From positions 18,571 to 82,570 of the forward strand of contig JAHDXH010000001.1 in assembly GCA_023382875.1 (NCBI GenBank): a stretch of DNA of 64,000 bases. The letters run 5' to 3'. Position 1 is the stretch's first letter. Each line of letters starts with the position of its first letter. This DNA is from Patescibacteria group bacterium. GTDB taxonomy: Bacteria; Patescibacteriota; Microgenomatia; UBA1400; PJMF01. Below are positions 5,333-62,358 of this stretch, in pieces. The position numbers and the translations under genes are program-made. The notes below the pieces were generated by a model. The model was not told the DNA's origin and ran no database searches. It was given only the letters and a program-made list of their open reading frames with translations.

Positions 5333-5337
5333 AGTGT

Positions 5338-5410: not shown

Positions 5411-5503
5411 GCGTTTCAAAGAAAATCCTTTGCTGACCTCAAGGCGTAATTATATACTCTACTGCTCCAATTTCCAAAATTAGTTTTTGCTATACTAAGC
5501 TAT

Positions 5504-5941
5504 ATGAAAAAATCCCCCTCCACCAGTAAGTCATCAGAAATGTCAGGTAAAAGAAATTTAGTCATGAGAGTTTACCTTTATATTTTCATGGGTATTGGTC
5601 TGGTGATGGTTTCAATTGGCGCTTTTGGTTTGGGTCAAAACATTTATAAATCAGCCCTCTTTCCTCGATACCCACTCGAATCATATAACGAAACCCGTTG
5701 TGACTATTTAGAAAATGGACCCTACCCAACTGACCCAGTCATGATGGGTAAAAATGATGCTGACACCAAAATGTTGATTGAACAAAACAAACAGCAAGCA
5801 GAAAAATGCCGTGCTTCTTTGGAAGAGGAACGAAAAATTAAAAAAGTGACTGATTTTTATAATTCATTAATTTTATTGGGAATTGGTTCAGTGTTGTTTG
5901 TCGGCCATTTGCTGGTCAACGTCAAAACTAATAATCGATGA
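5504..5941 (+). CDS. hypothetical membrane protein (2 TM flanking a soluble loop)
   Basis: 145 aa. Hydrophobic segments near residues 20-45 and 120-140. Stop overlaps the next start (ATGA at 5938). Confidence 0.45.
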   Translation: MKKSPSTSKSSEMSGKRNLVMRVYLYIFMGIGLVMVSIGAFGLGQNIYKSALFPRYPLESYNETRCDYLENGPYPTDPVMMGKNDADTKMLIEQNKQQAEKCRASLEEERKIKKVTDFYNSLILLGIGSVLFVGHLLVNVKTNNR

Positions 5942-6654
5942 AACATTTTGTTAATCAAGACACATATTTAACAGAGTTTAACGTTCATAAGAAGTACGCA
6001 GCGTCGGAATTGATTTTAGATTTAGTTTGGACACATTGTAATATTATTGCCGATGTCGCGATCAATTTATATCAAAAAAATAATTTAGATCCTAATGTTT
6101 ATAACCTTGGAGTAGTTGTGCAAGCGGCCTTGCTTCACGATATTGGAGTGTACGTCTGTGATGGCTATGAATTTTTGACTGATCAACCTTCATTTAATAA
6201 GCCATATGTTCAGCATACTTTAGCTGGCGCTATGATCTTGCAAAAAGAAGGCTTTAGTTCTGACGTAGTTCAATCTGCTAATGTTCATGCTGGCGTTGGT
6301 TTGACGAGTGATGATATTCATAAATTTGGTTTACAACTTCCTGATGGCGACTACGTGCCCACTACCCCTGTGCAAAGATTTATTACTTACTGTGCCAAGT
6401 TCCACTCCAAAGCACCAAAGTTTAAAACTGTTGAAGATATTCGTGAGGGTTTAGGAAAATATGGCAAGGAAAAACAAGAAGCCTTCGATGCCTTGGTAGC
6501 AGAGTATGGTTCACCTGATTTAGACGACATTAAAGAAAAATATAATTCTTGGCACCAAGGTTTTGCTTATGAAGTGGCAAAAGCTACTAATGTTGGCAAT
6601 CTCCATGAAGCTGGACCAGAGCTTAATTCGGCAGGAATCGCAGTGACCAAATAA
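5938..6654 (+). CDS. HD-domain metal-dependent phosphohydrolase
   Basis: HD motif LLHDIGVYV plus downstream His residues (HTLAGAM, NVHAGVG, KFHSKA). Translationally coupled to the upstream ORF. Confidence 0.6.
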   Translation: MKHFVNQDTYLTEFNVHKKYAASELILDLVWTHCNIIADVAINLYQKNNLDPNVYNLGVVVQAALLHDIGVYVCDGYEFLTDQPSFNKPYVQHTLAGAMILQKEGFSSDVVQSANVHAGVGLTSDDIHKFGLQLPDGDYVPTTPVQRFITYCAKFHSKAPKFKTVEDIREGLGKYGKEKQEAFDALVAEYGSPDLDDIKEKYNSWHQGFAYEVAKATNVGNLHEAGPELNSAGIAVTK

Positions 6655-8061: not shown

Positions 8062-9775
8062 GATAATTTAAATTTATTGTATCTCGTCGAGGCCAGAAAA
8101 AGCCGTCTGCATAAGCATTTATTTTAACTTCTTTTTTCTCAAATGGCATGATGGAATTGATCTCATAATCGTTTGGTACGCTCAACTTAGTTCGGCCATC
8201 TTGTGGCAATAGTGACAAGGTTTGATGATAAAAAGCTTGTCCCGTGCGATTAAAAATAAACAATTTAGTTGTTCCTGGAATAGGGAAACCTAATAAAGTT
8301 TGATTTTCAATTTTGAATTCAAAATCAGGTTTGGCACTGATAAACTGGTTGGCAAATTTAACCTCAATGTCTTTGGATTTGTCTTGGTTAGTAAGTTTAT
8401 ACGAACCTGCCGGATAAGGTTGCTCGCTGGAAAGACCATTGATAGCAAATACCACGTGATTTAAGTCAAATTGATTGAAATAGTCAACGCCACCAGAAGT
8501 TTTTTCCCAAGTTGGATCAACGCTTACCCAGGTATTTTTTTCTGCATCATAATACTCTGGCCAAGCATGAAGAACATCTTCTACAAAGCTTAGTGGTCTT
8601 AAAAGATCGTTCTGGGTATTGGCATAGCCAGTTAGTCGACGAGCCGGGACGTTTTTGGCCCGAGCAAAAGTGATGAAGAGATCAGTAAACTCTTGGCATA
8701 AGGCTCGATCGGGGGTTTTAAGTGCTTGTTCTGCTCCTAATCGTTCCACTTCCCCATTAATATTGTCAAAATCATAATTAAGATGTTTGACCACGTAATC
8801 ATAAGCTTCTTTGAGAGTGTCGAATTCTGGAATCAGTTTATTAATATTGCTGCTGCCGACTTGCCAATAGCTTTGTGAGCTTAGCCAATCTTGGTTGGGA
8901 CGGGTAAAGGGAGTGTTTGAATCTGGCGTTAAAGATACTTTGACTAGTATATGAGCATTCACAATCGTGGCACTGTTGGGTTCAAGTCTGTAGGTGGCAA
9001 TCCAATTGCCGTCAGCATCGGTTTTCATCACGCTTGGCGTAGGTTCTAAAAGTTTGTAGTCAACTTTCTGCCATGGTGTGTCTGGTGGCAAGGCAATTTG
9101 GCTAATCTTGGCGGTGTTGGTGGGATTGTCTAAGGAGTACTTAATATTAAATTCATAAATTTGAGTGTCACCAAAAATAAGTGAGGCGCTATTGCCGTTG
9201 AGGTTGTCGAATCTGGTCAGAATTGATTTGCCATCACTATTTAGTTGAGTCTGGTAGTTGTTGGGGTTGGCTCGAGTGGGTAAGCCAAAAGCTAAAGGCG
9301 AAATAATCTGGACGCTTTGACTATCAAATTCATCGTCACTGGCCTGCTGAGGAATAATAACCTCTAGAACCTGTCCACTGATATTAGCTACATCTGGGTT
9401 TTGGTAGGTAATGGTGAAGTCTCTGGATTTATTTTGACCAACTATTTGATCTGGGAAAGTGATGCCAATGTTGGTTTGATTATTATTTTTAACAACTTCT
9501 TTGGAAATTTCTTCGCCGGTGTTATCACGAATAACGACGTTGTCGATTTTTGATGAACTGAGCTTCAAGCCATATTGCTTGATAAATAAGGTGGGATTGA
9601 GGTTGGTAATTTGAAAGTGGTGAGAAACTTTGACATCGCCATTATTAGCAATGGTGTAGGTAGTATCGAGATCAACGGAAAAGTTTTTTTCTTGTGCCTG
9701 AATTGTGGTAGGAAAAATTATAGCAACTAAGCTTAAAAGTATTAGCCAACTTAATTTTCCAAACAAACGAAGCAT
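7895..9775 (-). CDS. secreted or surface transglutaminase-like cysteine-protease-domain protein with a C-terminal TM anchor
   Basis: Signal peptide MLRLFGKLSWLILLSLVAIIFPTTIQA. Transglutaminase-core signature CQEFTDLFITFARAKNVPARRLTGY...HAWPEYYD (Cys/His/Asp). C-terminus is a hydrophobic helix followed by QRRRRPVRR. Confidence 0.6.
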   Translation of the reverse strand: MLRLFGKLSWLILLSLVAIIFPTTIQAQEKNFSVDLDTTYTIANNGDVKVSHHFQITNLNPTLFIKQYGLKLSSSKIDNVVIRDNTGEEISKEVVKNNNQTNIGITFPDQIVGQNKSRDFTITYQNPDVANISGQVLEVIIPQQASDDEFDSQSVQIISPLAFGLPTRANPNNYQTQLNSDGKSILTRFDNLNGNSASLIFGDTQIYEFNIKYSLDNPTNTAKISQIALPPDTPWQKVDYKLLEPTPSVMKTDADGNWIATYRLEPNSATIVNAHILVKVSLTPDSNTPFTRPNQDWLSSQSYWQVGSSNINKLIPEFDTLKEAYDYVVKHLNYDFDNINGEVERLGAEQALKTPDRALCQEFTDLFITFARAKNVPARRLTGYANTQNDLLRPLSFVEDVLHAWPEYYDAEKNTWVSVDPTWEKTSGGVDYFNQFDLNHVVFAINGLSSEQPYPAGSYKLTNQDKSKDIEVKFANQFISAKPDFEFKIENQTLLGFPIPGTTKLFIFNRTGQAFYHQTLSLLPQDGRTKLSVPNDYEINSIMPFEKKEVKINAYADGFFWPRRDTINLNYHDQTTTVAITVVPNELSRLENPVVALGLGAGLVTVALLAGSLLVFVQRRRRPVRR

Positions 9776-9839
9776 ATCTTCATTTTAACGAAAAACTGCC
9801 CGTGTGTCTTGGAGAGTTCGATCTGGTAGAATGTGACTT

Positions 9840-10775
9840 ATGCAAGAATCCATCAAAAGAATTATTGTGACGGGCGGATCTGGTTTCCTAGGTCGCCATT
9901 TGCTTCGAGCTTTAACTAAAGCTGGATACCAAGTCAAAAACATTGATTTAAGACCTAATCCAGAATTTGAAACTGTAATTGCTGATGTTCGAGATAAAGA
10001 AAAAATGCTCGAAGAAATTAAAGATGCTGATTTAGTTTTTCATCTGGCTAGTTTGATTGAGGCTGGTGAATCTGTCAAAGAGCCGCAAAAATATATTGAC
10101 TACAACCTTGATGGCACTCTTAATATTTTGGAAGCTATGAGAATTAATGGCATTAAGACCATGGCCTTTTCTTCAAGCGCCGCAGTTTATGGCGAGCCAG
10201 TGCGTGTACCTATTCATGAAGATGATCGAACTATGCCCATCAATCCTTATGGCATGACTAAATTAGCTATGGAAGCTTTGCTATCTTCCTACGTCAACTC
10301 ACATGGTATGACAGGCATTGCCCTTCGCTACTTCAATCTCTATGGACCAGAGGAGCATCATGAACCAGAATCTCATGCTTTGCCAAGGTTCATTAAGCAG
10401 ATTTACAACAATGAAGAAGTGACTGTTTGGGGTAGTGGTGAACATCAACGTGACTATATTCATGTTGGTGACATTGTCGACGCCCACCTTAAAGCAATTT
10501 CCCTAGCTGAGTCACAACCAGGCAAATATCACTACTTCAATATTTCCACCGAAAAACCAGCTTCAGTAGCAGAAATTGTTGGTTTTATCGAAGAAGCGAT
10601 GGGTAAAAAAGCTAATATTAAAAATTTCCCACCAAGACCAGGAGATCCTTTGCTTTTATATGCTGATGCTTCCAAGGCAAGAGAGCAATTGGGATGGACT
10701 TCCCAAGTAGAATTGCGAGCTGGTATTAAGGAGATGGTTGAATATTTTGTTAAATATTGGCAGAAAGCAGCTTAG
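9840..10775 (+). CDS. NAD-dependent epimerase/dehydratase (UDP-sugar 4-epimerase-like SDR)
   Basis: Rossmann motif VTGGSGFLG and the extended-SDR catalytic region. 311 aa. Confidence 0.8.
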   Translation: MQESIKRIIVTGGSGFLGRHLLRALTKAGYQVKNIDLRPNPEFETVIADVRDKEKMLEEIKDADLVFHLASLIEAGESVKEPQKYIDYNLDGTLNILEAMRINGIKTMAFSSSAAVYGEPVRVPIHEDDRTMPINPYGMTKLAMEALLSSYVNSHGMTGIALRYFNLYGPEEHHEPESHALPRFIKQIYNNEEVTVWGSGEHQRDYIHVGDIVDAHLKAISLAESQPGKYHYFNISTEKPASVAEIVGFIEEAMGKKANIKNFPPRPGDPLLLYADASKAREQLGWTSQVELRAGIKEMVEYFVKYWQKAA

Positions 10776-37478: not shown

Positions 37479-37566
37479 TGGCGGAGGGGGCGGGATTCGA
37501 ACCCGCGGCAGCTTTCACCGCGGCGGTTTAGTAAACCGCTGCACTAGGCCACTATGCGACCCCTCC
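37479..37566 (-). tRNA. class II (long variable arm) tRNA, Ser-type, with anticodon loop TT-ACT-AA (apparent anticodon ACU)
   Basis: Minus-strand read GGAGGGG-TC-GCA-TAGTGGCCTAG-TGC-A-GCGGT-TTACTAA-ACCGC-[16-nt variable arm]-GCGGGTTCGAATCCCGC-CCCCTCC-G-CCA. Perfect acceptor and T stems, CCA encoded. One nucleotide away from a canonical tRNA-Ser(GCU) loop. Confidence 0.7.
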
Positions 37567-52546: not shown

Positions 52547-52975
52547 TTAAAGGAAGCGCGCGAGCGCTTCTTTTAGTTCTGCTAATTCTGATTGAGTTGG
52601 TTGATATGATCTTTCTTCTTTAGCTACTGCCCAAATGGCGGTATGTGCCAATTTATCTGTTTTATTTCTGGGAATAAGGTGCCAATGGGCGTGTGCATCA
52701 GTATTACCAAGCATTTCGTAATTTAATTTGTCAGGTGTGAATGCCTGATAGACAGCGTGAGCCACTTGAGCCATTTCCTCAAGGTATTTTTCCCTAAAAC
52801 CACTCTCCAATTCATGAAGCTCGTGGACGTGCATTTTGCACAAAAATAAAGTATAGCCACGATAGCTTTGATGATCAGCTAAAACTACATAGCCAGTTTC
52901 TAACTCTTTGACGAAATAAGGATTTTGTTCTTTTTTGATTAACTCAATTCGTTCACAAACAAGACAATTATTCAT
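52547..52975 (-). CDS. HIT-family hydrolase. The preferred start is ATG 52975 (MNNCLVCERIE). The track ORF uses TTG at 53011.
   Basis: N-terminal CxxC zinc motif and histidine triad DAHAHWHLIPR. Confidence 0.7.
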   Translation of the reverse strand: MNNCLVCERIELIKKEQNPYFVKELETGYVVLADHQSYRGYTLFLCKMHVHELHELESGFREKYLEEMAQVAHAVYQAFTPDKLNYEMLGNTDAHAHWHLIPRNKTDKLAHTAIWAVAKEERSYQPTQSELAELKEALARFL

Positions 52976-53019
52976 TTGATGTAATTTTAGACTACGATAA
53001 ACTCGTATCAACTAGTAGA

Positions 53020-53517
53020 ATGAGCACAATGAAAAGTAATAAAAACATGGATTATATTTGTCCTATCTGTCTGGGTAATAGTGGTGTCGAAAGCACCGAT
53101 ACTTTACTGAAGCAAAATGATCTAGTTTTTCGAGATGACTTAGTGAGTGTTTGGATTAATTCTTTTTGGGTTGGAAAAAACAAGGGTCATTTGATAGTTG
53201 TTCCCAATCAACACTTTGTTACACTTTGGGATTTGCCCACGGAAGTTGGTCATAGAATTTTTGAAGTTTCGAAATTGATGGCGGTGGCTTTAAAAGAAGT
53301 TTATAAGTGTGATGGGGTTACTCTTCGTCAAAACAACGAGTCAGCTGGTGATCAACACGCTTTCCATTATCATCAACATATTTTTCCTCGTTATATTAAT
53401 GACGATTTCAATCAAAAATTGGTTGAAAAAAGTACTCTTTCTGATCCACAAGAAAGAATTGTTTACGTAAAAAAGCTGCGTAGGTATTTAGAAGAAAGCG
53501 TTGATATTAAGATCTGA
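53020..53517 (+). CDS. HIT-family hydrolase (second, divergent copy). An alternative start is the internal Met at 53047 (MDYICPICLG).
   Basis: CPICLGN zinc motif and histidine triad HAFHYHQHIFPR. Confidence 0.7.
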   Translation: MSTMKSNKNMDYICPICLGNSGVESTDTLLKQNDLVFRDDLVSVWINSFWVGKNKGHLIVVPNQHFVTLWDLPTEVGHRIFEVSKLMAVALKEVYKCDGVTLRQNNESAGDQHAFHYHQHIFPRYINDDFNQKLVEKSTLSDPQERIVYVKKLRRYLEESVDIKI

Positions 53518-53533: not shown

Positions 53534-53562
53534 TTGACATCTTACATGCTCAAAAATATAAT
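53534..53562 (+). promoter_or_regulatory. perfect consensus sigma70 promoter TTGACA-17-TATAAT driving the T-box-like leader
   Basis: TTGACA at 53534-53539, 17-nt spacer, TATAAT at 53557-53562. Confidence 0.65.
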
Positions 53563-53569
53563 CCCATGA

Positions 53570-53816
53570 CTGAGAGTCAATGAAATTCGGTTGAGTGGAA
53601 GTCGCGCTCCACGAGTCTTCTTTGTAAATATAGAGAAGAACGAAGCTTGGCAAAATCCAAGCCGGAAAACCCGTCATAGTTAAGTTGTTTGCACTAGAAA
53701 TGCAAACAAAATTAAGGCACTTAAGATGTTAATTGAGTGCGAAGAAGGATGGTACCGCGTTGTAAAAACGCTCCTTCAACTATTGATAATAAACAATGGT
53801 TGGAAGAGCGTTTTTT
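53570..53816 (+). promoter_or_regulatory. candidate T-box riboswitch leader (antiterminator and terminator) upstream of an uncharacterised three-gene operon
   Basis: AGGATGGTACCGCG at 53746-53759 (T-box consensus AGGGUGGNACCGCG). Antiterminator GAAGGA-[UGGUACC]-GCG-loop-CGC-UCCUUC. Competing 15-bp terminator AAACGCTCCTTCAAC / GTTGGAAGAGCGTTT plus TTTTTT (53766-53816). AGAGA box near 53632. CCGTCA at 53670-53675. Confidence 0.55.
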
Positions 53817-53860
53817 AGTATCAAGAATTAATTTAAAAATTTGTAAAGATTATTCGTATT

Positions 53861-55051
53861 ATGTTAAGCACCAGAAAAGATGACGAGCATTTAGTAGACA
53901 CAGAACAATTGTGGTCTGAGCGATTTGATTTTAGCGACACAGCTCAATTTCCTTTGATTGCTCTGGAAATATTGGCGGCAATTCCAACTGACGGAACTGA
54001 AGAAGAGAGATTGGTTGGCCAGTTCGCAGATACACTGAGAGCTATGGTTGCTGATCCAGAAAAACAAACATTGTTATTTGCCAAGCTGTTAGAAATAAAT
54101 CCAAATTACCAGCCAAAATTGTATAGTCAAGATGCCAAGGCTAATGTTTTAGCTAATGTTGTGGCCGCTATTTATGCTCCATTAATCCATGCTTTTACAG
54201 GTAGTGTTTTGAAAAATATTCAGGCAGGAATTTTATCTCCAGTGGTGATTGCGCCACCACGTGATGGAATCCCTTTTGCCAATTCAATTAAGGCACAAGC
54301 TGATTTAAAAGGTGTCGCAATCAAAGTCATTGATTTACAAGTTACCAGAAAAGTAGCTGGTATCAGTAATCAACAAGGCCAAAATGGTCATGTGTCCAAC
54401 CCCGATCCATTGTTAGAGGAATATATTGCACAAGAATTAGGTCCATATTTTGAACAAGGTTTTACCGAAATTGAACCAGGAATTTATTCAACTACTAGTA
54501 TGGTGACAGCAGGTTTGGCATCTAAAATGGGTAATGAAAAATATACAGCGCTTAAACTTTATGGACTCGGACCAAACCTTAGCTTTGTTCACGCAATTTT
54601 AAGTGGTGGACAAGAATGGGTCGCAGAAAGAGCCGAGTCTCAAGGCTTAGTCGATCCAGGAAAAATTGCCAACTTGATGACACTTTTGGATTCTACTGAG
54701 GAATTCGGAATGCAACATATGCATGCCTCAGTTTCTAGTTTAAAAAGAAATGAGCAGGGTTTGGTTAAGCCAGATATTAGAGAATCAGAACCAGAAAACT
54801 TAGCAATCGCTATCGCTTCAAATTTAGCTATTACAGATACTGCGGAAATGTATTCAAATAATGAGTTGGCGTTACAAACTGCAACAAGTATTATTGATCA
54901 ATTTGACGAAATTGTGGCTTTGGCAAATCAAGGATTTCCTCTTTGTTTGACTAGCTTGATCCCACCGGGGAAAATTGATAATAAAATTACATTATTTGAA
55001 AAAATAAGAAGTAGCAAGTTACTCAACTTGCCATCAGGTTTAAACTTATAA
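53861..55051 (+). CDS. hypothetical protein (396 aa, soluble), first gene of the T-box-controlled operon
   Basis: Clean ORF starting 45 nt after the leader terminator. No family recognised. Confidence 0.4.
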   Translation: MLSTRKDDEHLVDTEQLWSERFDFSDTAQFPLIALEILAAIPTDGTEEERLVGQFADTLRAMVADPEKQTLLFAKLLEINPNYQPKLYSQDAKANVLANVVAAIYAPLIHAFTGSVLKNIQAGILSPVVIAPPRDGIPFANSIKAQADLKGVAIKVIDLQVTRKVAGISNQQGQNGHVSNPDPLLEEYIAQELGPYFEQGFTEIEPGIYSTTSMVTAGLASKMGNEKYTALKLYGLGPNLSFVHAILSGGQEWVAERAESQGLVDPGKIANLMTLLDSTEEFGMQHMHASVSSLKRNEQGLVKPDIRESEPENLAIAIASNLAITDTAEMYSNNELALQTATSIIDQFDEIVALANQGFPLCLTSLIPPGKIDNKITLFEKIRSSKLLNLPSGLNL

Positions 55052-55067: not shown

Positions 55068-55865
55068 ATGAAAAATAATTTTTTATCACTGTTCAAAAGC
55101 CAGAAGCCAATTATTGGTATGGTTCATCTTTTGGCCATGCCAAACTCAAACGGCTATGTTGGATTTGAGGCAACACTCCAGCATGCTCTTAATGAGTTGG
55201 ACAGTTTGGAAAAAGGTGGAATTGACGGCGTTCTGATTGAGAATGACAATGATTCGCCGTATACCTTATTAGCTGATCCAGCTACCGTTGCGGTAATGAC
55301 CGCAATAACTGCCAAAATTGTTGAAAAATCTAGTGTACCTGTTGGTGTAGAAGTATTATTGAATGATCCAAAGGCATCTTTGTCGATTGCAGTTGCTGGA
55401 GGTGCTCAATTTATTAGAACTGATTACTTTGTGGACAGAATGTCTAGGCCAGAATACGGTGGTGAAATATCTATAAACCCACAAGAGATTTTAGATTTTC
55501 GTTCAAAATTAAAGGCAGAAGATATTTTTATTTTAGCTGACGTTCAAGTTAAGCATGCACAATTGCTAGAAGTTGGAAAAACAATTTCTAGTTCAGTCAA
55601 GCAAGCTGAGCAGGCTGGCGCAGATGGGGTTATAGTTTCTGGCAATTTCACTGGAGAACAGCCTGTCGTTGATGATTTAAAAGAGGCTATGGAGGCGGTC
55701 GAGAATATTCCGGTTTTAATTGGCAGTGGTTTTTCATTGCAAAACTCAACTCAGCTTTTGCCTCATACAAATGGCGTAATAGTTGGATCTTCAATTAAAG
55801 AAAATGGAAAAGTTAGTTTGCAAAAAACTAGTGAATTGATGAGTGAAGTGAGAAGCTTTTTATAA
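55068..55865 (+). CDS. BtpA/SgcQ-family TIM-barrel protein
   Basis: N-terminal block KPIIGMVHLLAMPNSNGYVG...GGIDGVLIEND is characteristic of the BtpA family (PF03437-like). 265 aa. Confidence 0.65.
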   Translation: MKNNFLSLFKSQKPIIGMVHLLAMPNSNGYVGFEATLQHALNELDSLEKGGIDGVLIENDNDSPYTLLADPATVAVMTAITAKIVEKSSVPVGVEVLLNDPKASLSIAVAGGAQFIRTDYFVDRMSRPEYGGEISINPQEILDFRSKLKAEDIFILADVQVKHAQLLEVGKTISSSVKQAEQAGADGVIVSGNFTGEQPVVDDLKEAMEAVENIPVLIGSGFSLQNSTQLLPHTNGVIVGSSIKENGKVSLQKTSELMSEVRSFL

Positions 55866-56705
55866 ATGTTGCAGTTTTTGAATAGCCGATCCGATTCGCC
55901 AAAATTTATTTATGTTGGTGATTGTGGGGTTGATTTAATCGATAAAAAAATACGACCCGGTGGTTGTGCCCTAAATGTTAGTTACCACTTACATTCATTA
56001 AAACAAAATATTGATGTTTTAACTTGGATTGGCAATGATGATCGCTCTGGAATAGTGGTGAAAAAATTGAGCGAGATTGGTGCAAGCAAAAACAGAGTTC
56101 ACCAAACCTCAGGAAAAACTCCTGCACAATTTGTTAGTATTCAGCCCAGTGGTGAAAAAAAGTTTGAGAGCTATGAAGCTGGAGTTTTGTCGAGCGCAAA
56201 ACTAACTACAGCTGATAAAGATTTTATAAATCAGCACCATATTTTAATTACTCTTTGTTATTCGCAAATTGCAGATTTATTTGATCAAGTGACTCATGTC
56301 AAATTTGATGGACTTAAGGTTGTGGATTTTATGAGTTTGGCAGATTTTAATTTTGATCTTAACTTTGTCAAAAAATATTTAAATTGGTTTGATATTGTTT
56401 TATTTGGTTTAGATGAAAATCAGACTGAGCTCATTGATCAAATAAAAACCATGGCTCTACAGCATAAAAAATTATGTATTGTGACTTTGGGCAGTGCTGG
56501 TAGTAAGGTGTTTTGGGGTGAGAGTGAATATTTCCAGCCAACAAGGGCAACCAAAGTTGTTGACACAACTGGCTGTGGTGACGCATACCTAGCAGGCTTC
56601 CTGAGCGAATTCGTTCAAAGTCAGAATGTTGAACAAGCAATGAGCTCTGGTTCAAACTTGGCTGCTCAGGCAAGCACCTATTTAGGCGCTATACCTGAGC
56701 AATAA
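55866..56705 (+). CDS. PfkB-family (ribokinase-like) carbohydrate/nucleoside kinase
   Basis: C-terminal signature VVDTTGCGDAYLAGFL (anion hole / catalytic Asp). 279 aa. Start is contiguous with the BtpA stop. Confidence 0.75.
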   Translation: MLQFLNSRSDSPKFIYVGDCGVDLIDKKIRPGGCALNVSYHLHSLKQNIDVLTWIGNDDRSGIVVKKLSEIGASKNRVHQTSGKTPAQFVSIQPSGEKKFESYEAGVLSSAKLTTADKDFINQHHILITLCYSQIADLFDQVTHVKFDGLKVVDFMSLADFNFDLNFVKKYLNWFDIVLFGLDENQTELIDQIKTMALQHKKLCIVTLGSAGSKVFWGESEYFQPTRATKVVDTTGCGDAYLAGFLSEFVQSQNVEQAMSSGSNLAAQASTYLGAIPEQ

Positions 56706-56718: not shown

Positions 56719-57708
56719 TTAGACGAATACTTCAGCCATCATACAGCGTGCGCTTCCGCCACCTGTTCTTTCGATTTGGTCAATTTCAACAACTACGAGT
56801 TTACCGTATTGTTCCATAATTGCTCTTTGTTCCGGTGTGAAGCCATTATATGCAGTTTTGGACATCACAATTTTTTGACCCTCAGCTGAATTAACTTGCA
56901 AAATATTGCCACACATTTGACTCATTTGCTCAAGAGTAATGGCGATGACTTCTTTGCCGTTTTCGATTAGTTTTGTTTCAACTGCTTGTTTGTCTTTATC
57001 TTCTGGGATAGCTTCAAAACAAACGACTGCGAATTGTTCTCCAACGCTCATGACGACATTGGTGTGATAAATTTCATTACCTTGGGCGTCATTGGCGCGG
57101 AAAAAGACTGGCTCATAGCCGGTGGCTTCTCCGAAGTGGTTTACCCCGTCAACAGTAGTTCTTTGTGATAATGAAGCAAAAGCCAGTGCGTTTTGTCTGT
57201 CCAAAACTAAACTACCAGTTCCTTCTACAAATGAACCCTCTTTTTCTAGTTCGGTAAGGTCAACTACTGGCTTTTGAAGTACTATTCCAGCTTCTGCCAG
57301 AACCTCCATTGCTCTATTCAGCTGTCTTTCTTCGCGACGGTTTTTTGCCTTCATTGGGTAAAGGACAATTTTTGAATCGTGGAAAGAAATCCAGTTGTTT
57401 GGAAAGACTGCATCTGGAGTAGCAGCATAATCTCCAGCTTCATTGGTTCGATTGTCTAGGACAACAACTTTAATACCTTCATCTCTTAATTGGTTAACCA
57501 TCTCTACAAATTCTGTAAGCGCTCTATCTCTAATAATAGCTTCGCTAGCATTGGGTTCTCGGTGTTGGAAAAGGTTGTCAGGAGTGCCGGATTGATCATC
57601 GTAGGCAGTTTGTTCATTGAAGCCAAACATTGATGGGGTGATCATCATAATGATGTCAGTTATTTGTTTTTGTTCACGACCTTCAAGTTCTTGTGGTGTA
57701 CTTGACAT
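56719..57708 (-). CDS. amidinotransferase-superfamily hydrolase (CtlX/DDAH/arginine-deiminase-like)
   Basis: C-terminal catalytic-Cys motif ERTGGGSARCMMAEV. Conserved HTN in the mid region. 329 aa. Confidence 0.6.
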   Translation of the reverse strand: MSSTPQELEGREQKQITDIIMMITPSMFGFNEQTAYDDQSGTPDNLFQHREPNASEAIIRDRALTEFVEMVNQLRDEGIKVVVLDNRTNEAGDYAATPDAVFPNNWISFHDSKIVLYPMKAKNRREERQLNRAMEVLAEAGIVLQKPVVDLTELEKEGSFVEGTGSLVLDRQNALAFASLSQRTTVDGVNHFGEATGYEPVFFRANDAQGNEIYHTNVVMSVGEQFAVVCFEAIPEDKDKQAVETKLIENGKEVIAITLEQMSQMCGNILQVNSAEGQKIVMSKTAYNGFTPEQRAIMEQYGKLVVVEIDQIERTGGGSARCMMAEVFV

Positions 57709-57827
57709 ACTGTCTCCTTTGGGCGGCTAACTAAAAATTAGATAATTGTACAATGGGAATTAGTATCGTGAAAGTCTTACTTATCCGTTACACCATCGTG
57801 ATACAATTGGGTGTAATTTAAGTAACA

Positions 57828-58847
57828 GTGGATAGGACATTTGGTATGATATCACAACAAAATTCCCATGAATTGCTTATTAAGCTTATAGATATTCCAT
57901 CAATTAGTAGCGATGAAAATGCGGTTTGTACTTTTGTTTTTGACTTACTAAAGACAATGTCTTTTGATACTGTTCAAAGAATTCCCGTCGATGAACATGG
58001 CTTTAACATCTTTGCAACGAAAGGTGTACCTAAAGTTCTTTTGCAGGCTCATTTGGATGTGGTGCCTCCACATATTCCCTCTCGCGTTGATGAAACAAAA
58101 ATTTATGGTCGTGGTAGCTGTGACACTAAGGCCTCGGCGGCTTGCATGATTGTGGCAGCCCAACAAGCTTTAGCCGATGGCCTGACAAATTTTGGTGTGG
58201 TTTTCACAGTCAGAGAAGAAACAAGTATGGTTGGAATTAAAAAGCTAGTTTCGGCATTGCCTCAAATTCCTTTTACTATTGTTGGTGAACCTTCAAAGTT
58301 GCAACCCGTGACTAGTCACTTTGGGATGTTAACTTTGAATTTGGAAACTAAGGGAAAAGCTGCTCATACTAGCCAAGCTGGCGAAGGCGTTAACGCTATA
58401 GACGCACTTATCAAAGCTGCCGCTGATCTTCAAAAAATTACCATTCATCCAGACTCGATGCTTTCAGTTGTCAAAATTGAAGGGGGCGTGGCTTCAAACA
58501 TTGTGCCACCGCTTGCCAAAGCTCGCTACAGTTTTAGGATTTCACCAGATGACAAAAATGATTACTTGGAAATGTTCACCAAAGTTTTAAAAAATCATCC
58601 CTTAGCAACAGTCACCAAGGGTTTCGAAGCTGGCGCTGTGAAATCTAAATTACCTAGTGAGTTATCATTTTTAGGTAAAGGTCAGACAGTTAAATATTTC
58701 ACTGAGCTATCATTTTTACAATCTGGTGTTATTTTAGGACCTGGCGACATCATTCACGCTCACACCGACATCGAGCAAGTACAAAAAAAAGAATTAGACG
58801 AAGCGGTTCTTTTGTACGGCAAGATTTTGGTTGCTATGGCTAATTAA
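57828..58847 (+). CDS. M20-family metallohydrolase (ArgE/DapE-like deacylase)
   Basis: LQAHLDVVPP and GRGSCDTKAS motifs (metal-binding His/Asp, GxGxxDxK) of acetylornithine deacetylase / succinyl-DAP desuccinylase. Confidence 0.75.
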   Translation: MDRTFGMISQQNSHELLIKLIDIPSISSDENAVCTFVFDLLKTMSFDTVQRIPVDEHGFNIFATKGVPKVLLQAHLDVVPPHIPSRVDETKIYGRGSCDTKASAACMIVAAQQALADGLTNFGVVFTVREETSMVGIKKLVSALPQIPFTIVGEPSKLQPVTSHFGMLTLNLETKGKAAHTSQAGEGVNAIDALIKAAADLQKITIHPDSMLSVVKIEGGVASNIVPPLAKARYSFRISPDDKNDYLEMFTKVLKNHPLATVTKGFEAGAVKSKLPSELSFLGKGQTVKYFTELSFLQSGVILGPGDIIHAHTDIEQVQKKELDEAVLLYGKILVAMAN

Positions 58848-59422
58848 ACGTCGGTGATATCAATAACCACGACATCGGCATTGCCATCTTGCAAAACAAT
58901 TTCTAAATTGCTTGGCCATTGTTCTGGATGCAGAAGTTTGCCTCCATTTGCTAACATGACTTGTTGCGACTTTAGATTATTGTGTTCGGCTACGCCAATA
59001 ATTTGAGCATTAGGTTTGGCAATTTTGCCTTTTTTGACTGTGTCTAACATAACTCTTGTCCCCCAGCCTTGACCCATATAATTTGAGGCAACTAGCCAGC
59101 TACCTAGCTCAAACAGTGGTGCGCCTTGGGCGGTTGTTCCTGGCCACTGCATGAGTTTGGCAAAAGCTACGATTTCAAAATCCTTGTCTTCATTCACAAA
59201 AATAGTGCCCATGCCTTTGGCGACAAAATCCATAATTTGATGAGGTGAAAATTGCAGCATCGAGTCAGGATACTGGCCTAATAAATCGGTTACTTGGCAA
59301 CACAGCTCGTATAAAAGTTTTGCTTCAAAATCTGGTAGCTCTTCAACTTCTTTATTTTGAAGATGAGATAGTGGGTTGAATTCAACAATACTGGAAGGCA
59401 TATTACTCCTTTTTAGTGGCAT
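58844..59422 (-). CDS. hypothetical protein, possibly GNAT-like acyltransferase fold
   Basis: GQGWGTRVM resembles GNAT motif A. Weak. 192 aa. Confidence 0.35.
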   Translation of the reverse strand: MPLKRSNMPSSIVEFNPLSHLQNKEVEELPDFEAKLLYELCCQVTDLLGQYPDSMLQFSPHQIMDFVAKGMGTIFVNEDKDFEIVAFAKLMQWPGTTAQGAPLFELGSWLVASNYMGQGWGTRVMLDTVKKGKIAKPNAQIIGVAEHNNLKSQQVMLANGGKLLHPEQWPSNLEIVLQDGNADVVVIDITDV

Positions 59423-60596
59423 GAACTACGGCGGCAATTTTTCCTTGAAGTCCATATAGCTTGATAAATCCATCAGCCTCAACCGCAGACCAACTACTGC
59501 TTTGGGCGTAGCTAGCGATGTCAGGTTTGATCAGGGTGAAAGGAGAAGAAATTGCGACTGGCAAAACTTGGTTGGGTTGAACTTTGAGTTTCACTTCCCC
59601 ACTCACAACACTCTGTTCAGCATCAAAGAATGACTTCAGGTTAGCAACAACTGGTTCAAAAAACTTGCCAGTATAAAATAGGTCGGTTAAATGTTGTCCA
59701 AGCTCTGCGCCAATAGTTTGTTGTGGTTTGGTCAGAACTAATTGTTCCAAAGCTTTGTGAGCTGTTATTAATGCTAAAACACCTGGAGCTTCAAAGACGA
59801 TATGACCTTTGATACCAATCACACAGTCGCCAGTGTAATAACCTCGGCCATATCCATACTGACCTATCAGCTTGTTAAGTTTTTGCAGGATTGTTTCGCC
59901 CGACATCTTAACACCGTCAAGTGCGCAGGGAACGCCTTTGTCAAATTTAATAGTAATGTAGATGGGTTTGGTGGCAGTTGGTTTGGTCCAAATGAACATT
60001 GATTCGTCTGGTTCTTTGAGTTCATCGATTTCGCTGCCTGAGTAAGTAATGCCTAAGACATTTTGGTTAACAGAATATTTCTTGTGAAGGTTTGGGACTT
60101 CAAAACCTTTTTCTTTCAAAAATTCCATTTCTTTTTGTCTGTTACCGCCCATTTCTTTGATTGGTGAGTGAATGGTGATGTTGGGATCGAGAGTCATTAA
60201 AGCAACGTCAAACCTGACCTGATCGTTTCCCATTGCACTTGATCCATGAGCGACGTGGTTGACTTTTAGTTTATGAGCAACTTTTAAAACTTCCTCAGCA
60301 ATGATGTATCTATCGGTACACATGTTGGGATATGAACCTTGATATAGACCATTGGTTTTAATGATATATTCGACAACTGAATTAAACATTGAATTCATGC
60401 CATCAACTTGAATGTGTTTGATCGCACCAAATTTTTTTGATTTTTCAGCTATAGCTTTAAGTTCTTCTTTTGTGTAACCACCGGTTTCCACAGTCACGGT
60501 GATGACTTCGAAGCCTTGTTCTTGTAAATATGGAATTGAGAATGATGTATCAAGGCCGCCTGAAAATGCCAAGATAATTTGTTTTCCTTTTTTCAT
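59403..60596 (-). CDS. argG: argininosuccinate synthase
   Basis: PP-loop AFSGGLDTS at the N-terminus and the full-length ArgG architecture (397 aa). Confidence 0.9.
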   Translation of the reverse strand: MKKGKQIILAFSGGLDTSFSIPYLQEQGFEVITVTVETGGYTKEELKAIAEKSKKFGAIKHIQVDGMNSMFNSVVEYIIKTNGLYQGSYPNMCTDRYIIAEEVLKVAHKLKVNHVAHGSSAMGNDQVRFDVALMTLDPNITIHSPIKEMGGNRQKEMEFLKEKGFEVPNLHKKYSVNQNVLGITYSGSEIDELKEPDESMFIWTKPTATKPIYITIKFDKGVPCALDGVKMSGETILQKLNKLIGQYGYGRGYYTGDCVIGIKGHIVFEAPGVLALITAHKALEQLVLTKPQQTIGAELGQHLTDLFYTGKFFEPVVANLKSFFDAEQSVVSGEVKLKVQPNQVLPVAISSPFTLIKPDIASYAQSSSWSAVEADGFIKLYGLQGKIAAVVHATKKE

Positions 60597-60905
60597 ATGT
60601 CCTTTCTGTGTGACATTAATTGTTTTTTAAATACAAAAAAACAACTTGATTAAAAATTACAGAAAGGGACGTTGAAAACGTGGTACCACCCTTTTTCCTC
60701 ACTTAAGTTGCCCTAAGTGAGCTCAGTCTATTTGCTCCGTTGCTCTAAACGAGTGACACAAATATGTGGCTATAACGGGCCCTGCCGTCTTAGATTTTGC
60801 TAAGCTCCTCAGCTTGAGAGTAGATCTCAAGCACTAAGAATCGCGACTTCTTAATTAGGATTTGTGGTTATTAAGATACAACATCAATCATTGCTGATGA
60901 CGTTA
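60597..60905 (-). promoter_or_regulatory. candidate T-box leader RNA of argG (minus strand) with antiterminator-like element and possible SD-sequestering helix
   Basis: Minus-strand AAAAAGGGTGGTACCACG (plus 60679-60696), which is the T-box core GGGUGGUACC. CCCGTTATA (F-box-like CCGUUA). Antiterminator-like AAAGGG-[UGGUACC]-ACGUU-uuc-AACGU-CCCUUU. GUCCCUUUCUG can pair with CAGAAAGGAC, which covers the argG SD GAAAGGA. Promoter TTGCAA-17-TATTAT at 60912-60940. Confidence 0.5.
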
Positions 60906-60911
60906 AGCGAT

Positions 60912-60940
60912 ATAATACACAATAGTTTTTTTATTTGCAA
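60912..60940 (-). promoter_or_regulatory. sigma70-like promoter (minus strand) TTGCAA-17-TATTAT for the argG leader
   Basis: Minus-strand -35 TTGCAA (plus 60935-60940), 17-nt spacer, -10 TATTAT (plus 60912-60917). Confidence 0.45.
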
Positions 60941-60958
60941 GATCGGAGAATGCAAGTT

Positions 60959-61879
60959 CTACTTTCTGACGAGTGGCAAAGTTAAACAATGCGGACCACC
61001 GCCTTGCGTAAGGATATCAGATAGTTCGACTTCAATAACTTCGATTCCACCCTCTCTCATTCTTTGATTAGTTTGTTTGTTTTCTGCTGCTGAAATAACT
61101 TTTCTGTCAGCAATTGCCAAAACATTAGTGCAACAAGTAGTATATTCATCTTTACTGGCTTCGATCAATTGGTACCCTTTGGTTTGCAAAAGTCTAATGA
61201 CATCATCAGGAATCCATTCCGGAATACAAACAATAGATTTGTTTCCCAAAATACCCATGACAGTATCGATATGAAATGCTTTATCTTCAAAAACTGGATA
61301 AACAGGAACAAACTGTGTGCCTGGGAAATGATCGCGCAACACTTCTAAACTTATCTCATTTGTTCGTGGTCCGATGCCCACTAAAGCCAGTTCTGAATTG
61401 AGCAAAGCAAAGTCTCCACCTTCAATTGTATAAGGTCTCGAATCTTCAATAATATTTTTGGCAGCTATATTCTGATAAATACCATCAACTTCACCTTTTC
61501 GATAATCATATTTCATGACTGATGGCAAAACTTTTCCTCCAATAATTACCCCCACATCTCTGGTAAACAAAGGGGTATGACCCACTCTACCAGGCTCAAC
61601 ATCAGAGTAAACTAACTCTATGCCTTGGCTTTCTAGTGTATCCATTAGTCCGCGAAATTGCCTGGTGGCAATCGGTTTTGACTCCAGAGCGACTGGGTTT
61701 CCTTGAGCATGGAAAGCTTGAACCGGGTTAACAATCAAATCATTAAACGAAGTAATCTCTTGAGGTGGTCTAACAACCATGACTTTGACTAAGGGTGAAA
61801 ATTCATTGTTTAGATGAGGGGTTATTTTTGGGCGATCATCTAGCTCATAATCAGGGTTAAGTTCAGGATTTCTTCGCAT
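60959..61879 (-). CDS. amidinotransferase-superfamily hydrolase (DDAH / arginine-deiminase-type, 306 aa)
   Basis: C-terminal catalytic motif LTQGGGPHCLTLPL. Mid-region conserved His/Asp. Confidence 0.55.
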   Translation of the reverse strand: MRRNPELNPDYELDDRPKITPHLNNEFSPLVKVMVVRPPQEITSFNDLIVNPVQAFHAQGNPVALESKPIATRQFRGLMDTLESQGIELVYSDVEPGRVGHTPLFTRDVGVIIGGKVLPSVMKYDYRKGEVDGIYQNIAAKNIIEDSRPYTIEGGDFALLNSELALVGIGPRTNEISLEVLRDHFPGTQFVPVYPVFEDKAFHIDTVMGILGNKSIVCIPEWIPDDVIRLLQTKGYQLIEASKDEYTTCCTNVLAIADRKVISAAENKQTNQRMREGGIEVIEVELSDILTQGGGPHCLTLPLVRK

Positions 61880-61932
61880 ATTGTTAGCGAGTATAATGAG
61901 TGCGCAATCACATGTAAATACTCAATGGAATT

Positions 61933-62358
61933 ATGAAAACTCATCAACAACCCGTCGGTGTCTGTGTAATTCTTCTCAATTCACAAGGTCAAATTTTATT
62001 GGGTAGGCGCAAAAATGGCTATAAATCAGGTGAGTATGGTTTGCCCGGTGGACATGTTGATGTCGATGAATTGACTGAACAGGCAGCAATAAGGGAAGTT
62101 CTGGAAGAAACTGGAATTAAAGGACTTAATTTTACTTTTTTAGGGTTGGTGCGCGAAAACCAAGGCGAATATGATTTCATTCACTTTGTTTATGTGGCCA
62201 AGTTGACTGACCAAGAGCCAAAATTAACTGAGCCTAATAAGTGTGAAGGTTGGGAGTGGTTCGATCAAAACAGTAAGTTTGATAATGTTTTGCGAGGTCA
62301 TTACGCAGCGATTAAATTATTTTTGGATAAAAAGACTTTAGCTGATTTGCCAAAATAA
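61933..62358 (+). CDS. NUDIX hydrolase
   Basis: Nudix box GLPGGHVDVDELTEQAAIREVLEETG. Confidence 0.8.
   Translation: MKTHQQPVGVCVILLNSQGQILLGRRKNGYKSGEYGLPGGHVDVDELTEQAAIREVLEETGIKGLNFTFLGLVRENQGEYDFIHFVYVAKLTDQEPKLTEPNKCEGWEWFDQNSKFDNVLRGHYAAIKLFLDKKTLADLPK

Follow-up and report, generated by a model that had tools for sequence, protein, structure and literature searches.

A T-box riboswitch with a very short Stem I, probably specific for tRNA-Arg, ahead of an orphan operon in a Patescibacteria bacterium

The locus

The window, the whole stretch of 64,000 nucleotides analysed here, carries a consensus promoter, a structured leader and an operon encoding an orphan protein (X), a BtpA/SgcQ-family protein and a PfkB-family sugar kinase (Table 1). 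The source of the DNA is an uncultured member of the Patescibacteria (CPR), bacteria known for their minimal metabolism, and the leader, judged from the sequence, is a genuine tRNA-sensing T-box riboswitch. A second T-box of the same class precedes argG.

Table 1. Features of the leader, the operon and the second T-box, with their positions in the window
Feature	Position	Strand	Evidence
Sigma-70-type promoter: TTGACA (53534), 17-nt spacer, TATAAT (53557-53562)	53534..53562	+	12/12 matches in scan
Short 'Stem I' domain: basal helix, specifier hairpin and inserted hairpin	53586..53644	+	Complementary changes across leaders
Proposed specifier hairpin GUGGA-[A GUCGCG C]-UCCAC	53595..53612	+	Loop invariant in 13 leaders; 5/5 stem pairs covary
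Stem II GCUUGG-[CAAAAU]-CCAAGC	53645..53662	+	5/5 pairs covary; (C)AAAAU loop conserved
Stem IIA CGG (53663-65)/CCG (53671-73); F-box CCGUCA (53671-76); IIB pseudoknot AAC (53668-70) with GUU (53679-81)	53663..53681	+	Rfam alignment
Linker hairpin UUGUUUGCA...UGCAAACAA	53686..53710	+	MFE and centroid folds
Stem III GCACUUAA...UUGAGUGC	53717..53740	+	Aligned to RF00230 Stem III; in MFE fold
Antiterminator with T-box core AGGAUGGUACCGCG (53746-59)	53744..53777	+	Fold; RF00230 alignment
Intrinsic terminator, ~21 bp, U6	53766..53816	+	Folds; shares 53769-53777 with the antiterminator
X, 396 aa, orphan CPR-specific family	53861..55051	+	PRPP-dependent ribofuranosyltransferase-like predicted fold
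BtpA/SgcQ-family TIM-barrel protein	55068..55865	+	PF03437, 213.9 bits vs 30; TIGR00259, 210 bits vs 153.4
PfkB-family sugar kinase	55866..56705	+	PF00294, 83.4 bits; NF007321, 120.6 bits vs 247
Second T-box, same class, upstream of argG	60599..60865	-	RF00230, 47.7 bits, window E = 2.3e-7

The promoter lies exactly where the first-pass annotation had placed a perfect consensus, and no other perfect site occurs within a 5-kb scan. The orthologous locus L006 has an identical promoter. Transcription presumably starts near 53569. Two tiny upstream reading frames, earlier thought to be incidental, occupy the very start of the transcript, either before the basal helix of the leader or running into it; no sign of function was found, and they were set aside as functional elements.

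A T-box leader with mutually exclusive folds

The whole leader is far more stable than its shuffled counterparts (z = -6.2). A comparison with the Rfam T-box model RF00230, proposed in the first-pass annotation, gave 38.1 bits, with E = 4.4e-7 in a local search and 6.7e-5 across the window. The score does not reach the curated gathering threshold of 93 bits; the E-value is nonetheless significant, and the F-box, Stem III and antiterminator are well aligned. The low score is explained by the non-canonical Stem I. The leader upstream of the X orthologue in L028 scores 101 bits, above the same cutoff.

The T-box core was re-counted: AGGATGGTACCGCG at 53746-53759 does match AGGGUGGNACCGCG at 13 of 14 positions. 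The antiterminator proposed around it consists of GAAGGA (53744-49), the bulge UGGUACC (53750-56), GCG, a 9-nt loop, CGC and UCCUUC (53772-77), and it is the MFE fold, at -12.2 kcal/mol, when the 3' strand of the terminator is removed. A G-to-A change in the core is offset by C-to-U on the partner strand, giving GGA/UCC in the window and GGG/CCC in other leaders. The bulge sequence UGGUA is invariant among the T-box leaders found, and its UGGU (53750-53) would pair with the ACCA at the 3' end of a tRNA.

The terminator was originally described as a 15-bp helix followed by U6. The terminator itself is borne out, but the 15-bp stretch contains one C.A mismatch and one G.U pair, and the helix really spans ~21 bp (53766-53813). 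Its U6 run ends at 53816, ~45 nt upstream of the start codon of X, and the 3' part of the leader that includes it folds at -27.8 kcal/mol. As had been claimed, antiterminator and terminator are mutually exclusive, since both use 53769-53777. This alternation, whose conservation in orthologous loci had been named as a check, was recovered in 11 of 12 X leaders of differing sequence, namely that of the window and 10 of the 11 others. The exception is L016, in which the MFE structure of the truncated leader is a different fold, yet the same antiterminator pairing can be drawn. Across the 11 other X leaders, the terminator-containing 3' parts fold at -22 to -43 kcal/mol, with U5-6 at the end.

Related leaders and the short Stem I

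A T-box core lies upstream of X in 17 of 25 first-round loci, and two more leaders (L016 and L023) were spotted by eye. Thirteen related CPR leaders have one architecture, comprising a short GUCGCG-loop hairpin, a short Stem II, the IIA/B pseudoknot with the F-box, Stem III and the antiterminator/terminator pair. Other leaders, too, have a hairpin where the linker hairpin lies, and most of these hairpins show the pattern GUGUC...AGAGC. With architecture and pairing kept in orthologous loci, the original proposal of a tRNA-sensing T-box ahead of the 396-aa/BtpA/PfkB operon is upheld.

The long Stem I, with its K-turn, internal specifier loop with S-turn, AG bulge and distal loop, is absent from the leader, and the 74 central Stem I positions of RF00230 are reduced to 6 nt in the alignment. 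Three orthologous leaders (L002, L028 and L025) retain it. The basal helix that closes the short domain (UUCG 53586-89/CGAA 53641-44) recurs across leaders in complementary versions that were read from the sequences: UUCGC/GCGAA, UCCGC/GCGGA, AUCGU/ACGAU, UCC/GGA and AGC/GCU. Between the specifier hairpin and the closing strand lies a lineage-specific inserted hairpin (53616-53639), missing in 8 of 13 leaders. It bears the AGAGA (53632-53636) that had been listed among the T-box elements. This motif is missing in the 88%-identical orthologue L006 and in most family members, and its lack of conservation rules it out as the AG box of Stem I.

Stem II is a hairpin of 5-6 bp with a (C)AAAAU loop, in which the GAA/AGUA S-turn motif was not found. 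The segment that follows, CGG-AAAAC-CCG-UCA, aligns to the IIA/B element and F-box (CCGUUA) of RF00230, with CGG/CCG invariant across the counted leaders, so the CCGUCA earlier called F-box-like does fall on the F-box of the model. For the IIB pseudoknot, loop and linker are complementary in seven sequence versions. A shuffle test on best-helix length did not discriminate (53 bp observed vs 45 expected); the case for this pairing is made by complementary changes at a roughly fixed register.

Both hairpins that had been seen to recur in the argG leader, with the loops GUCGCG and CAAAAU, were found there again, the first as AAGAA-[GUCGCGA]-UUCUU; the core of this leader is GGGUGGUACCACG. No U-tract terminator was found within it. 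A helix that can sequester the argG Shine-Dalgarno sequence is present in the MFE fold, but its z is only -1.8; on the predicted structure, the argG leader looks translational.

In the decoding module, 100% of the cells are paired, compared with 12-49% in slid controls, and 10 of 13 pairs show changes on both sides (8 leaders). The covariation score was not equalled by any of 500 shuffles (13 pairs, 8 leaders). Pair counting was limited to the eight insert-free leaders (alignment A4), because the optional inserted hairpin caused MAFFT alignments of all 14 decoding modules (A2 and A3) to misplace the 3' strand of the specifier hairpin; other helices were listed by script. A covariance model built from A4 (R1) finds the insert-bearing leaders but labels the insert as hairpin I, and its alignment (A5) was excluded from the counts. 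Scanning the window with R1 yielded no further member.

Specifier codon and link to arginine

The first-pass annotation had looked for the specifier in GGAAAACCCGUCA (53662-53675). By Rfam alignment, this segment is Stem IIA (CGG/CCG), IIB and the F-box. The sequence of its loop is free to vary from one leader to the next, and the segment was discarded as a specifier. The specifier is most likely CGC (Arg) at 53603-53605, in the terminal loop of the GUCGCG hairpin, because the orthologous leaders with a canonical Stem I place Arg codons at the Rfam specifier position (CGC in L002, CGC in L028 and CGA in L025). Two other triplets, UCG (Ser) and GCG (Ala), can be read in the same loop.

The arginine-linked genes that occur with these leaders, argG, argS and tRNA-Arg, agree with the proposed CGC codon, whose position in the loop we infer. 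In L001 and L015/L027, the T-box and X are separated by tRNA-Arg genes. The earlier prediction, made from the UGGU bulge, of a tRNA with discriminator A73 fits well: all 8 of 8 tRNA-Arg genes from related loci (L001, L015 and L018) carry A73. No tRNA-Arg gene of the source genome lies within the window. In L001 and L015 the neighbouring tRNA that reads CGN has the anticodon UCG, and pairing it with CGC would leave a U.C mismatch at the wobble position. The suggestion that the leader points to an amino-acid-linked pathway was reasonable, and the Arg codons and linked genes now allow the amino acid to be named as arginine.

The regulated genes

X had been described as having no recognisable family. 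Its fold is predicted to be that of PRPP-dependent ribofuranosyltransferases, with a PRTase-like catalytic core and helical bundles, and its closest relatives by predicted structure are polysaccharide ribofuranosyltransferases. By sequence, X had no match in the PDB, with single-sequence or profile searches, nor in Pfam or NCBIfam, and a profile search of 1.84 billion representatives returned its own family and no remote relatives. Within this family, P133-R134-D135 are invariant and follow a beta-strand at 128-130; E203/E205, G207 and T211 are invariant and T212 and S213 near-invariant, in and just after a beta-strand at 201-205.

To our knowledge, the biochemical function of the BtpA family has long been uncharacterised. 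The best match of the kinase is fructoselysine-6-kinase, but NF007321 stays below its equivalog cutoff, and on sequence the assignment is one of general PfkB membership only. Searches by sequence found no close solved structure for either protein.

No locus has another coding gene between the leader and X. BtpA lies directly downstream of X in almost every locus with enough sequence; in L026 it is encoded close by but on the other strand. Outside CPR, BtpA-PfkB pairs are found too, with no arginine genes in the vicinity. A separate HAD phosphatase gene (Hydrolase_3) belongs to the operons of L008, L010 and L015/L027, and none is present in the operon of the window. The earlier statement that the operon includes no aminoacyl-tRNA synthetase is correct for the source genome but does not hold elsewhere: in at least five other lineages (L001, L002, L010, L015/L027 and L028) the operon runs on into argS, which is its last gene. 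The operon of L008 is divergent from ctlX-ADI-argS.

Proposed mechanism and alternative readings

We consider it highly probable that 53569-53816 is a tRNA-Arg-specific T-box that acts by transcription antitermination and controls the X/BtpA/PfkB module of a CPR arginine/tRNA-Arg regulon. The observations behind this reading are the sequence elements with their conservation and covariation, the Arg codons of the canonical orthologues, the A73 match, the gene linkage and the fold match; tRNA binding via the terminal loop, the direction of regulation, the use of PRPP and the pathway chemistry are what we infer from them.

Transcription would begin at the consensus promoter, and the anticodon of tRNA-Arg would pair with CGC. 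An uncharged tRNA would then pair through its A73-C-C-A end with UGGU in the T-box bulge and fix the antiterminator, which would allow RNA polymerase to enter the operon. With charged tRNA, the much stronger terminator would form instead. A phosphoribosyl or sugar-phosphate conjugate, required when arginine charging is low, is probably the product or the substrate of the X-BtpA-PfkB module. A more speculative proposal for its chemistry, by analogy with TrpD/TrpF or HisG/HisA, is that an amine is first N-phosphoribosylated and the product then undergoes an Amadori-type rearrangement in the TIM barrel. If so, the widespread BtpA family would gain its first biochemical role.

A different reading, which we regard as unlikely though well short of negligible, is that the T-box really regulates argS, and that X, BtpA and the kinase are passengers without an arginine role, engaged for example in envelope ribofuranosylation, that merely came to lie between riboswitch and argS in an ancestral operon, the leader having been kept in the source genome after argS moved. 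The terminal position of argS in at least five lineages, the polysaccharide ribofuranosyltransferases nearest to X in structure and the occurrence of BtpA-PfkB pairs outside CPR away from arginine genes would all be accommodated by such a history. However, it is X that always stands first behind the leader, and the leader remains intact, with covarying stems, in the window, L006 and L008, where no argS lies downstream. Further, L018 has four tRNA-Arg genes ahead of X and no T-box, and L008 and L026 link X to ADI and CtlX-like genes.

That the leader is a degenerate or non-functional remnant, whose terminator is constitutive or overcome by a factor other than tRNA such as a protein, is very improbable. 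The low Rfam score could be read in this way, as could the missing tRNA-elbow platform, described as important for transcriptional T-boxes (PMC7583486), and L026 has lost the T-box discriminator while its 5' module persists. Nevertheless, every helix is upheld by compensatory changes across lineages with only 40-60% protein identity and the bulge UGGUA is invariant, a pattern not expected of a decaying element. Finally, sensing of another tRNA, through GCG (Ala) or UCG (Ser), which share the invariant loop with CGC, or through a specifier elsewhere such as GGAAAACCCGUCA, seems very improbable given the CGC, CGC and CGA of the canonical orthologues, the regulated or linked argG, argS and tRNA-Arg genes, and the alignment of GGAAAACCCGUCA, with its freely variable loop, to Stem IIA/B and the F-box.

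Comparison with known systems

The nearest counterparts of X are the CriT domain of Haemophilus influenzae Bcs3 (8a0c/8a0m) and an enzyme of Thermobacillus composti (7shg), whose PRTase-like alpha/beta core plus helical bundles is matched by the predicted fold of X. X may also have their R-D loop and acidic residue at equivalent strands: P133-R134-D135 and E203/E205 resemble S678-R679-D680 and E818 of CriT, and G207, T211, T212 and S213 recall a loop for the PRPP 5-phosphate (PMC10299916). The pairing of CriT with CrpP is mirrored by the HAD phosphatase gene in several orthologous X operons (L008, L010 and L015/L027). In contrast to these enzymes, X has no detectable sequence similarity to them, is a stand-alone, cytoplasmic-looking protein of 396 aa encoded outside capsule/O-antigen clusters, and has BtpA and a sugar kinase as operon partners under predicted tRNA-Arg control. 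The riboswitch ties the orphan X family and the BtpA family to the arginine/tRNA-Arg economy and offers a starting point for assigning their function.

With canonical transcriptional T-boxes (RF00230; Bacillus tyrS and glyQS), the leader shares the 14-nt core, the 7-nt UGGN bulge, the exclusive antiterminator and terminator, Stem III, the IIA/B pseudoknot, the F-box and a promoter-proximal place before amino-acid-related genes. It differs in its host, in a Stem I cut down to a basal helix and a 5-bp hairpin, in having neither an internal specifier loop with S-turn nor an AG bulge nor a distal loop for the tRNA elbow, and in a Stem II of 5-6 bp with a (C)AAAAU loop instead of an S-turn stem. 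According to a review, transcriptional T-boxes generally need a long Stem I (PMC7583486); fast co-transcriptional sensing by the short form is putative, proposed here from sequence features. It is possible, though doubtful, that these leaders form a distinct CPR class of T-boxes, in which the codon sits in an anticodon-loop-like loop of 6 to 8 nt, mostly 7 nt (G-U-CGC-G-A), which acts co-transcriptionally without an elbow arm or a Stem II S-turn, and whose core regulon is an orphan PRPP-dependent ribosyltransferase with BtpA, a sugar kinase and sometimes a phosphatase in a previously unrecognised arginine/tRNA-Arg pathway. Such a class, if real, would run against the idea that a transcriptional T-box captures its tRNA fast enough only by contacting the elbow. 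Standard annotation misses such leaders, both copies in the window scoring far below the Rfam T-box threshold, and the extent of T-box regulation in Patescibacteria is for this reason probably underestimated; no mention of T-boxes in this group was found in the literature searched.

The closest known relatives of the short form are the ultrashort (US) Stem I T-boxes of Actinobacteria, in which a short helix replaces Stem I and the specifier lies in the terminal loop (Sherwood, Grundy and Henkin 2015, as described in bioRxiv 10.1101/2023.02.28.530422 and PMC7583486). That class is described as translational, and all of its members as regulating ileS and sensing tRNA-Ile (bioRxiv 10.1101/2023.02.28.530422). 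The leader resembles it in its terminal-loop specifier, here proposed for the A-GUCGCG-C loop of a 5-bp hairpin, in having no elbow-binding domain, and in retaining Stem II and IIA/B alongside. It differs in phylum, in a Stem II without the S-turn motif, in its proposed Arg codon, and in its targets, X-BtpA-PfkB and argG, with argS in relatives, in place of tRNA-Ile and ileS; further, the X leader has an intrinsic terminator (~21 bp, U6) in place of a translational sequestrator. Based on these features, the leader is most likely an ultrashort-Stem-I, Arg-specific T-box that acts by transcription termination. A terminal-loop specifier had earlier been described only for the translational ileS leaders of Actinobacteria (bioRxiv 10.1101/2023.02.28.530422), and its proposed occurrence in another phylum, for arginine and coupled to an intrinsic terminator, makes the postulated kinetic need for tRNA-elbow contact directly testable.

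The leader upstream of the X operon

The 396-aa protein X, a BtpA/SgcQ-family TIM-barrel protein and a PfkB-family kinase are encoded in one operon, and the analysis supports the reading of the leader in front of it as a T-box riboswitch controlling that operon. The promoter, T-box core, bulged antiterminator and overlapping U6 terminator described in the first-pass annotation are all present where it had placed them. Their mutual exclusivity is likewise borne out: one segment is common to both folds, and once the terminator 3' strand is taken away the minimum free energy (MFE) structure coincides with the bulged antiterminator, at -12.2 kcal/mol, whereas the full 3' part including the terminator folds at -27.8 kcal/mol. 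The full-leader fold, in which the terminator dominates, has z = -6.2 versus shuffles, and the terminator ends about 45 nt upstream of the X start codon. Two details needed revision, as the "15-bp" terminator contains one C.A mismatch and is really a helix of about 21 bp, while the "AGAGA box" belongs to an inserted hairpin missing in most relatives. Two divergent HIT-domain genes lie directly upstream of the promoter, a pair kept in the close relatives L005-L007 and not in more distant loci.

Features of the window and of related loci from other genomes (L handles)
Locus	Feature	Position (strand)	Details
Window	Promoter	53534-53562	TTGACA-17-TATAAT, 12/12; sole perfect site in 5-kb scan
Window	T-box core	53746-53759	AGGATGGTACCGCG
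Window	Antiterminator	53744-53777	GAAGGA, bulge UGGUACC, GCG, 9-nt loop, CGC, UCCUUC
Window	Terminator	U6 end at 53816	53769-53777 reused in 5' strand
Window	Inserted hairpin	53616-53639	contains AGAGA
Window	HIT-domain genes	52547-53517	154 and 165 aa
Window	argG leader	60599-60865 (-)	short-Stem-I class; loop GUCGCGA; core GGGUGGUACCACG; RF00230 47.7 bits
Window	Arginine/citrulline gene island	56719-62358	adjoins X operon
Window	tRNA-Ser, anticodon ACU	37479-37566 (-)	ARAGORN; A at position 34; unusual, the bacterial AGY reader normally being GCU
L001	tRNA-Arg(UCU), tRNA-Arg(UCG), then X	5708-5940	directly 3' of T-box terminator
L015 (= L027)	tRNA-Arg(UCU), tRNA-Arg(UCG), then X	1367-1609 (L027: 5800-5955)	directly 3' of T-box terminator
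L018	tRNA-Arg genes tct, cct, tcg, gcg	4269-4632	before X; T-box absent
L028	Degenerate tRNA-like remnant	about 5890	position equivalent to tRNA-Arg genes of L001, L015
L002 (Saccharibacteria)	Full transcriptional T-box	5542-5800
L002	Second T-box element	5860-5945	3' of full T-box; discriminator only (GGGUGGUACCGCG...)
L010	Extra GC-rich hairpin + U5-6	about 5880-5905	within leader, upstream of Stem III
L015	Extra GC-rich hairpin + U5-6	about 1330-1350	within leader, upstream of Stem III
L026	5' decoding module	96-322	model R1, 33 bits; loop UCGCAA; terminators only, T-box core absent
L029	T-box discriminator (41 bits)	5680-5867	tRNA T-loop-like GGUUCGAAUCC in place of specifier hairpin
L027	BtpA fused to APH-fold kinase	8092-9912
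L030	BtpA-PfkB pair without X	5001-6625
L031	BtpA-PfkB pair without X	5001-6631

At its gathering threshold (93 bits) the Rfam T-box model RF00230 reported nothing for the window leader. A permissive run of this model, the search proposed in the first-pass annotation, gave 38.1 bits, below that threshold; the E-value is 4.4e-7 in the local search and 6.7e-5 when computed over the window. The alignment is good over the 3' half (F-box, Stem III, core and antiterminator), and 74 central Stem I positions shrink to 6 nt. Far higher Rfam scores are reached by three leaders of orthologous loci in which the canonical long Stem I is retained: L028 (101 bits, over the cutoff), L025 (82.7) and L002 (69.2).

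Conservation of the leader

A hypothetical protein of a "Patescibacteria group bacterium" matches X at 100% identity, and the 52 homologues of X are from Shapirobacteria, Roizmanbacteria, Saccharibacteria, WS6 or unnamed metagenome contigs. Among 29 gathered loci encoding X homologues, 17 of the first 25 have a T-box core no more than a few hundred bases 5' of X, most loci without a core in that count having little upstream sequence; two further leaders (L016, L023) were picked up by reading upstream sequences. The architecture of the window leader is common to 13 distinct leaders, the argG leader of the window included. It comprises a short basal helix and a hairpin of 4-7 bp, the loop of which is GUCGCG in every leader with 0-2 bases added; some leaders also have an extra hairpin. 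Next come a Stem II hairpin of 4-6 bp, capped by the loop (C)AAAAU, and Stem IIA, where CGG...CCG leads into U-N-A (F-box). A linker hairpin and Stem III precede the bulged antiterminator, and the terminator ends in U5-6.

The helices of this architecture are backed by covariation. In the eight leaders without an inserted hairpin, to which pair counting was restricted, standard pairs occupy 100 of 100 countable cells over 13 pairs; ten pairs change on both sides, and the three invariant ones are the CGG/CCG of Stem IIA. None of 500 shuffles reached the observed covariation score, and pairing falls to 12-49% when the partner strand is shifted 1-3 columns. The IIA loop and linker are complementary in seven versions (GAGU/ACUC, GUAC/GUAC, GUGA/UCAC, AAGC/GCUU, AAAC/GUUU, AGGC/GUCU and GUUG/CAAC); a length-based shuffle test of the IIB pseudoknot across leaders did not discriminate. 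All 12 X leaders have a strong terminator, differing in sequence, that overlaps the antiterminator-forming strand, with 3'-part fold energies of -22 to -43 kcal/mol, and in 11 of them (the exception being L016) the MFE structure of the truncated RNA is the bulged antiterminator. Both the architecture and the antiterminator/terminator pairing are therefore kept in orthologous loci, and the refutation test set in the first-pass annotation comes out in favour of its reading.

Several relatives carry additional elements. The GC-rich hairpins of L010 and L015, found at equivalent positions in L016, L021 and L023, resemble a further terminator, or a pause site, before the T-box decision point. In L002, the 3' strand UCCCUUCU of the second element can pair with the X Shine-Dalgarno AGGAGGGA, and the leader may be a tandem transcriptional-plus-translational arrangement.

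Specifier and amino acid

The segment proposed earlier as specifier (53662-53675) turned out to be Stem IIA/B and the F-box. At the Rfam specifier position, the canonical leaders L028, L025 and L002 have an arginine codon (GAA-CGC-G, GAA-CGA-G and GAA-A-CGC-C, respectively), and in short-Stem-I leaders the whole long arm is replaced by a hairpin whose invariant loop holds CGC then G. Because of these two observations, the specifier is, judged from sequence, most probably C53603-G-C53605 in the terminal loop (Arg CGC). At loci where tRNA-Arg(UCG) is the only such tRNA close by, its pairing with CGC would include a U.C wobble mismatch; in TBDB, C-ending specifiers are preferred in general, arginine included (PMC7778990).

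The gene context agrees with arginine. A second short-Stem-I leader in the window precedes argG, the X operon continues into argS in L001, L002, L010, L015/L027 and L028, and in L008 it stands back-to-back with ctlX-ADI-argS. Two tRNA-Arg genes separate the T-box terminator from X in L001 and L015/L027, and four lie 5' of X in L018. All eight of these genes have discriminator A73, as had been predicted from the UGGU bulge. Since tRNA-Arg genes directly follow the terminator in two lineages, they may themselves be under transcription control of a tRNA-Arg T-box. The earlier statement that no synthetase is regulated holds for the window, where neither argH nor argS was seen within 64 kb, but not for related genomes, where argS closes the same operon.

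The adjoining island encodes a CtlX citrulline-utilisation hydrolase, which scores over the NCBIfam cutoff, together with an M20 deacylase of ArgE/DapE-like type, a 192-aa weakly GNAT-like protein whose gene overlaps the end of argG, ArgG, a 306-aa ADI/DDAH-fold protein and a NUDIX hydrolase. The argG leader looks translational because it lacks a U-tract terminator and GUCCCUUUCUGU (60670-60659) can pair with ACAGAAAGGAC (60609-60599), covering the argG Shine-Dalgarno; the modelled sequestering fold has weak statistics (z only -1.8).

The X operon

X matched nothing in Pfam, NCBIfam or PDB sequences, and no more than 25 of 1.84 billion cluster representatives belong to its tiny family. The description of X as having no recognisable family is superseded by a structural match: its confident AlphaFold model (36 homologues, pLDDT 89, pTM 0.87) resembles the CriT domain of Haemophilus influenzae Bcs3, which makes X an orphan PRPP-transferase-like family. 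CriT is a PRTase-like glycosyltransferase that moves ribofuranose-5-phosphate from PRPP, after which the HAD phosphatase CrpP takes off the phosphate; in CriT the key residues are R679/D680, which follow one strand, and E818, which follows a second one (PMC10299916). X has an invariant P133-R134-D135 after strand 128-130, and invariant E203, E205, G207 and T211 with near-invariant T212 and S213 after strand 201-205, the latter looking like a PRPP 5-phosphate loop. The pattern is analogous to that of CriT, a correspondence we infer rather than read from a superposition.

X and BtpA genes are adjacent at almost all loci, BtpA lying nearby on the opposite strand in L026. The operon kinase is PfkB or APH-fold, and several X operons contain a HAD (Hydrolase_3) gene. 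BtpA appears to work as one functional unit with a small-molecule kinase, because the BtpA-PfkB pair is kept without X outside CPR (Oligoflexales, Vicinamibacterales) and BtpA is fused to the APH-fold kinase in L027. Speculatively, X would phosphoribosylate an acceptor, the phosphate-binding TIM barrel would isomerise or otherwise process the product by analogy with TrpD/TrpF and HisG/HisA, and intermediates of ketoamine or ribosyl type would fall to FrlD-like or APH-like kinases and the phosphatase. For annotation of CPR metabolism, an orphan PRPP-transferase-like family and BtpA would be tied to arginine.

Comparison with known T-boxes

In the literature collection searched, no paper linking T-boxes with Patescibacteria, CPR or Saccharibacteria was found. 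While the discriminator half of the window leader is standard, its decoding half departs from the norm. The internal specifier loop and its S-turn are missing, as are the AG bulge and the distal loop, which bind the tRNA elbow, and Stem II has no S-turn motif. Of the forms described, the "ultrashort" class of Actinobacteria comes nearest. According to a review, the elbow contact is expendable in translational T-boxes, whereas transcriptional ones generally require a long Stem I, a contrast that it puts down to how little time co-transcriptional sensing allows (PMC7583486). Unlike the ultrashort class, the window leader has an intrinsic terminator along with its Stem I of ultrashort type, comes from another phylum and is, by its predicted specifier, arginine-specific. 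Its interest as a riboswitch lies in coupling transcription termination to a short Stem I, with a putatively new amino acid and a phylum that is new as well.
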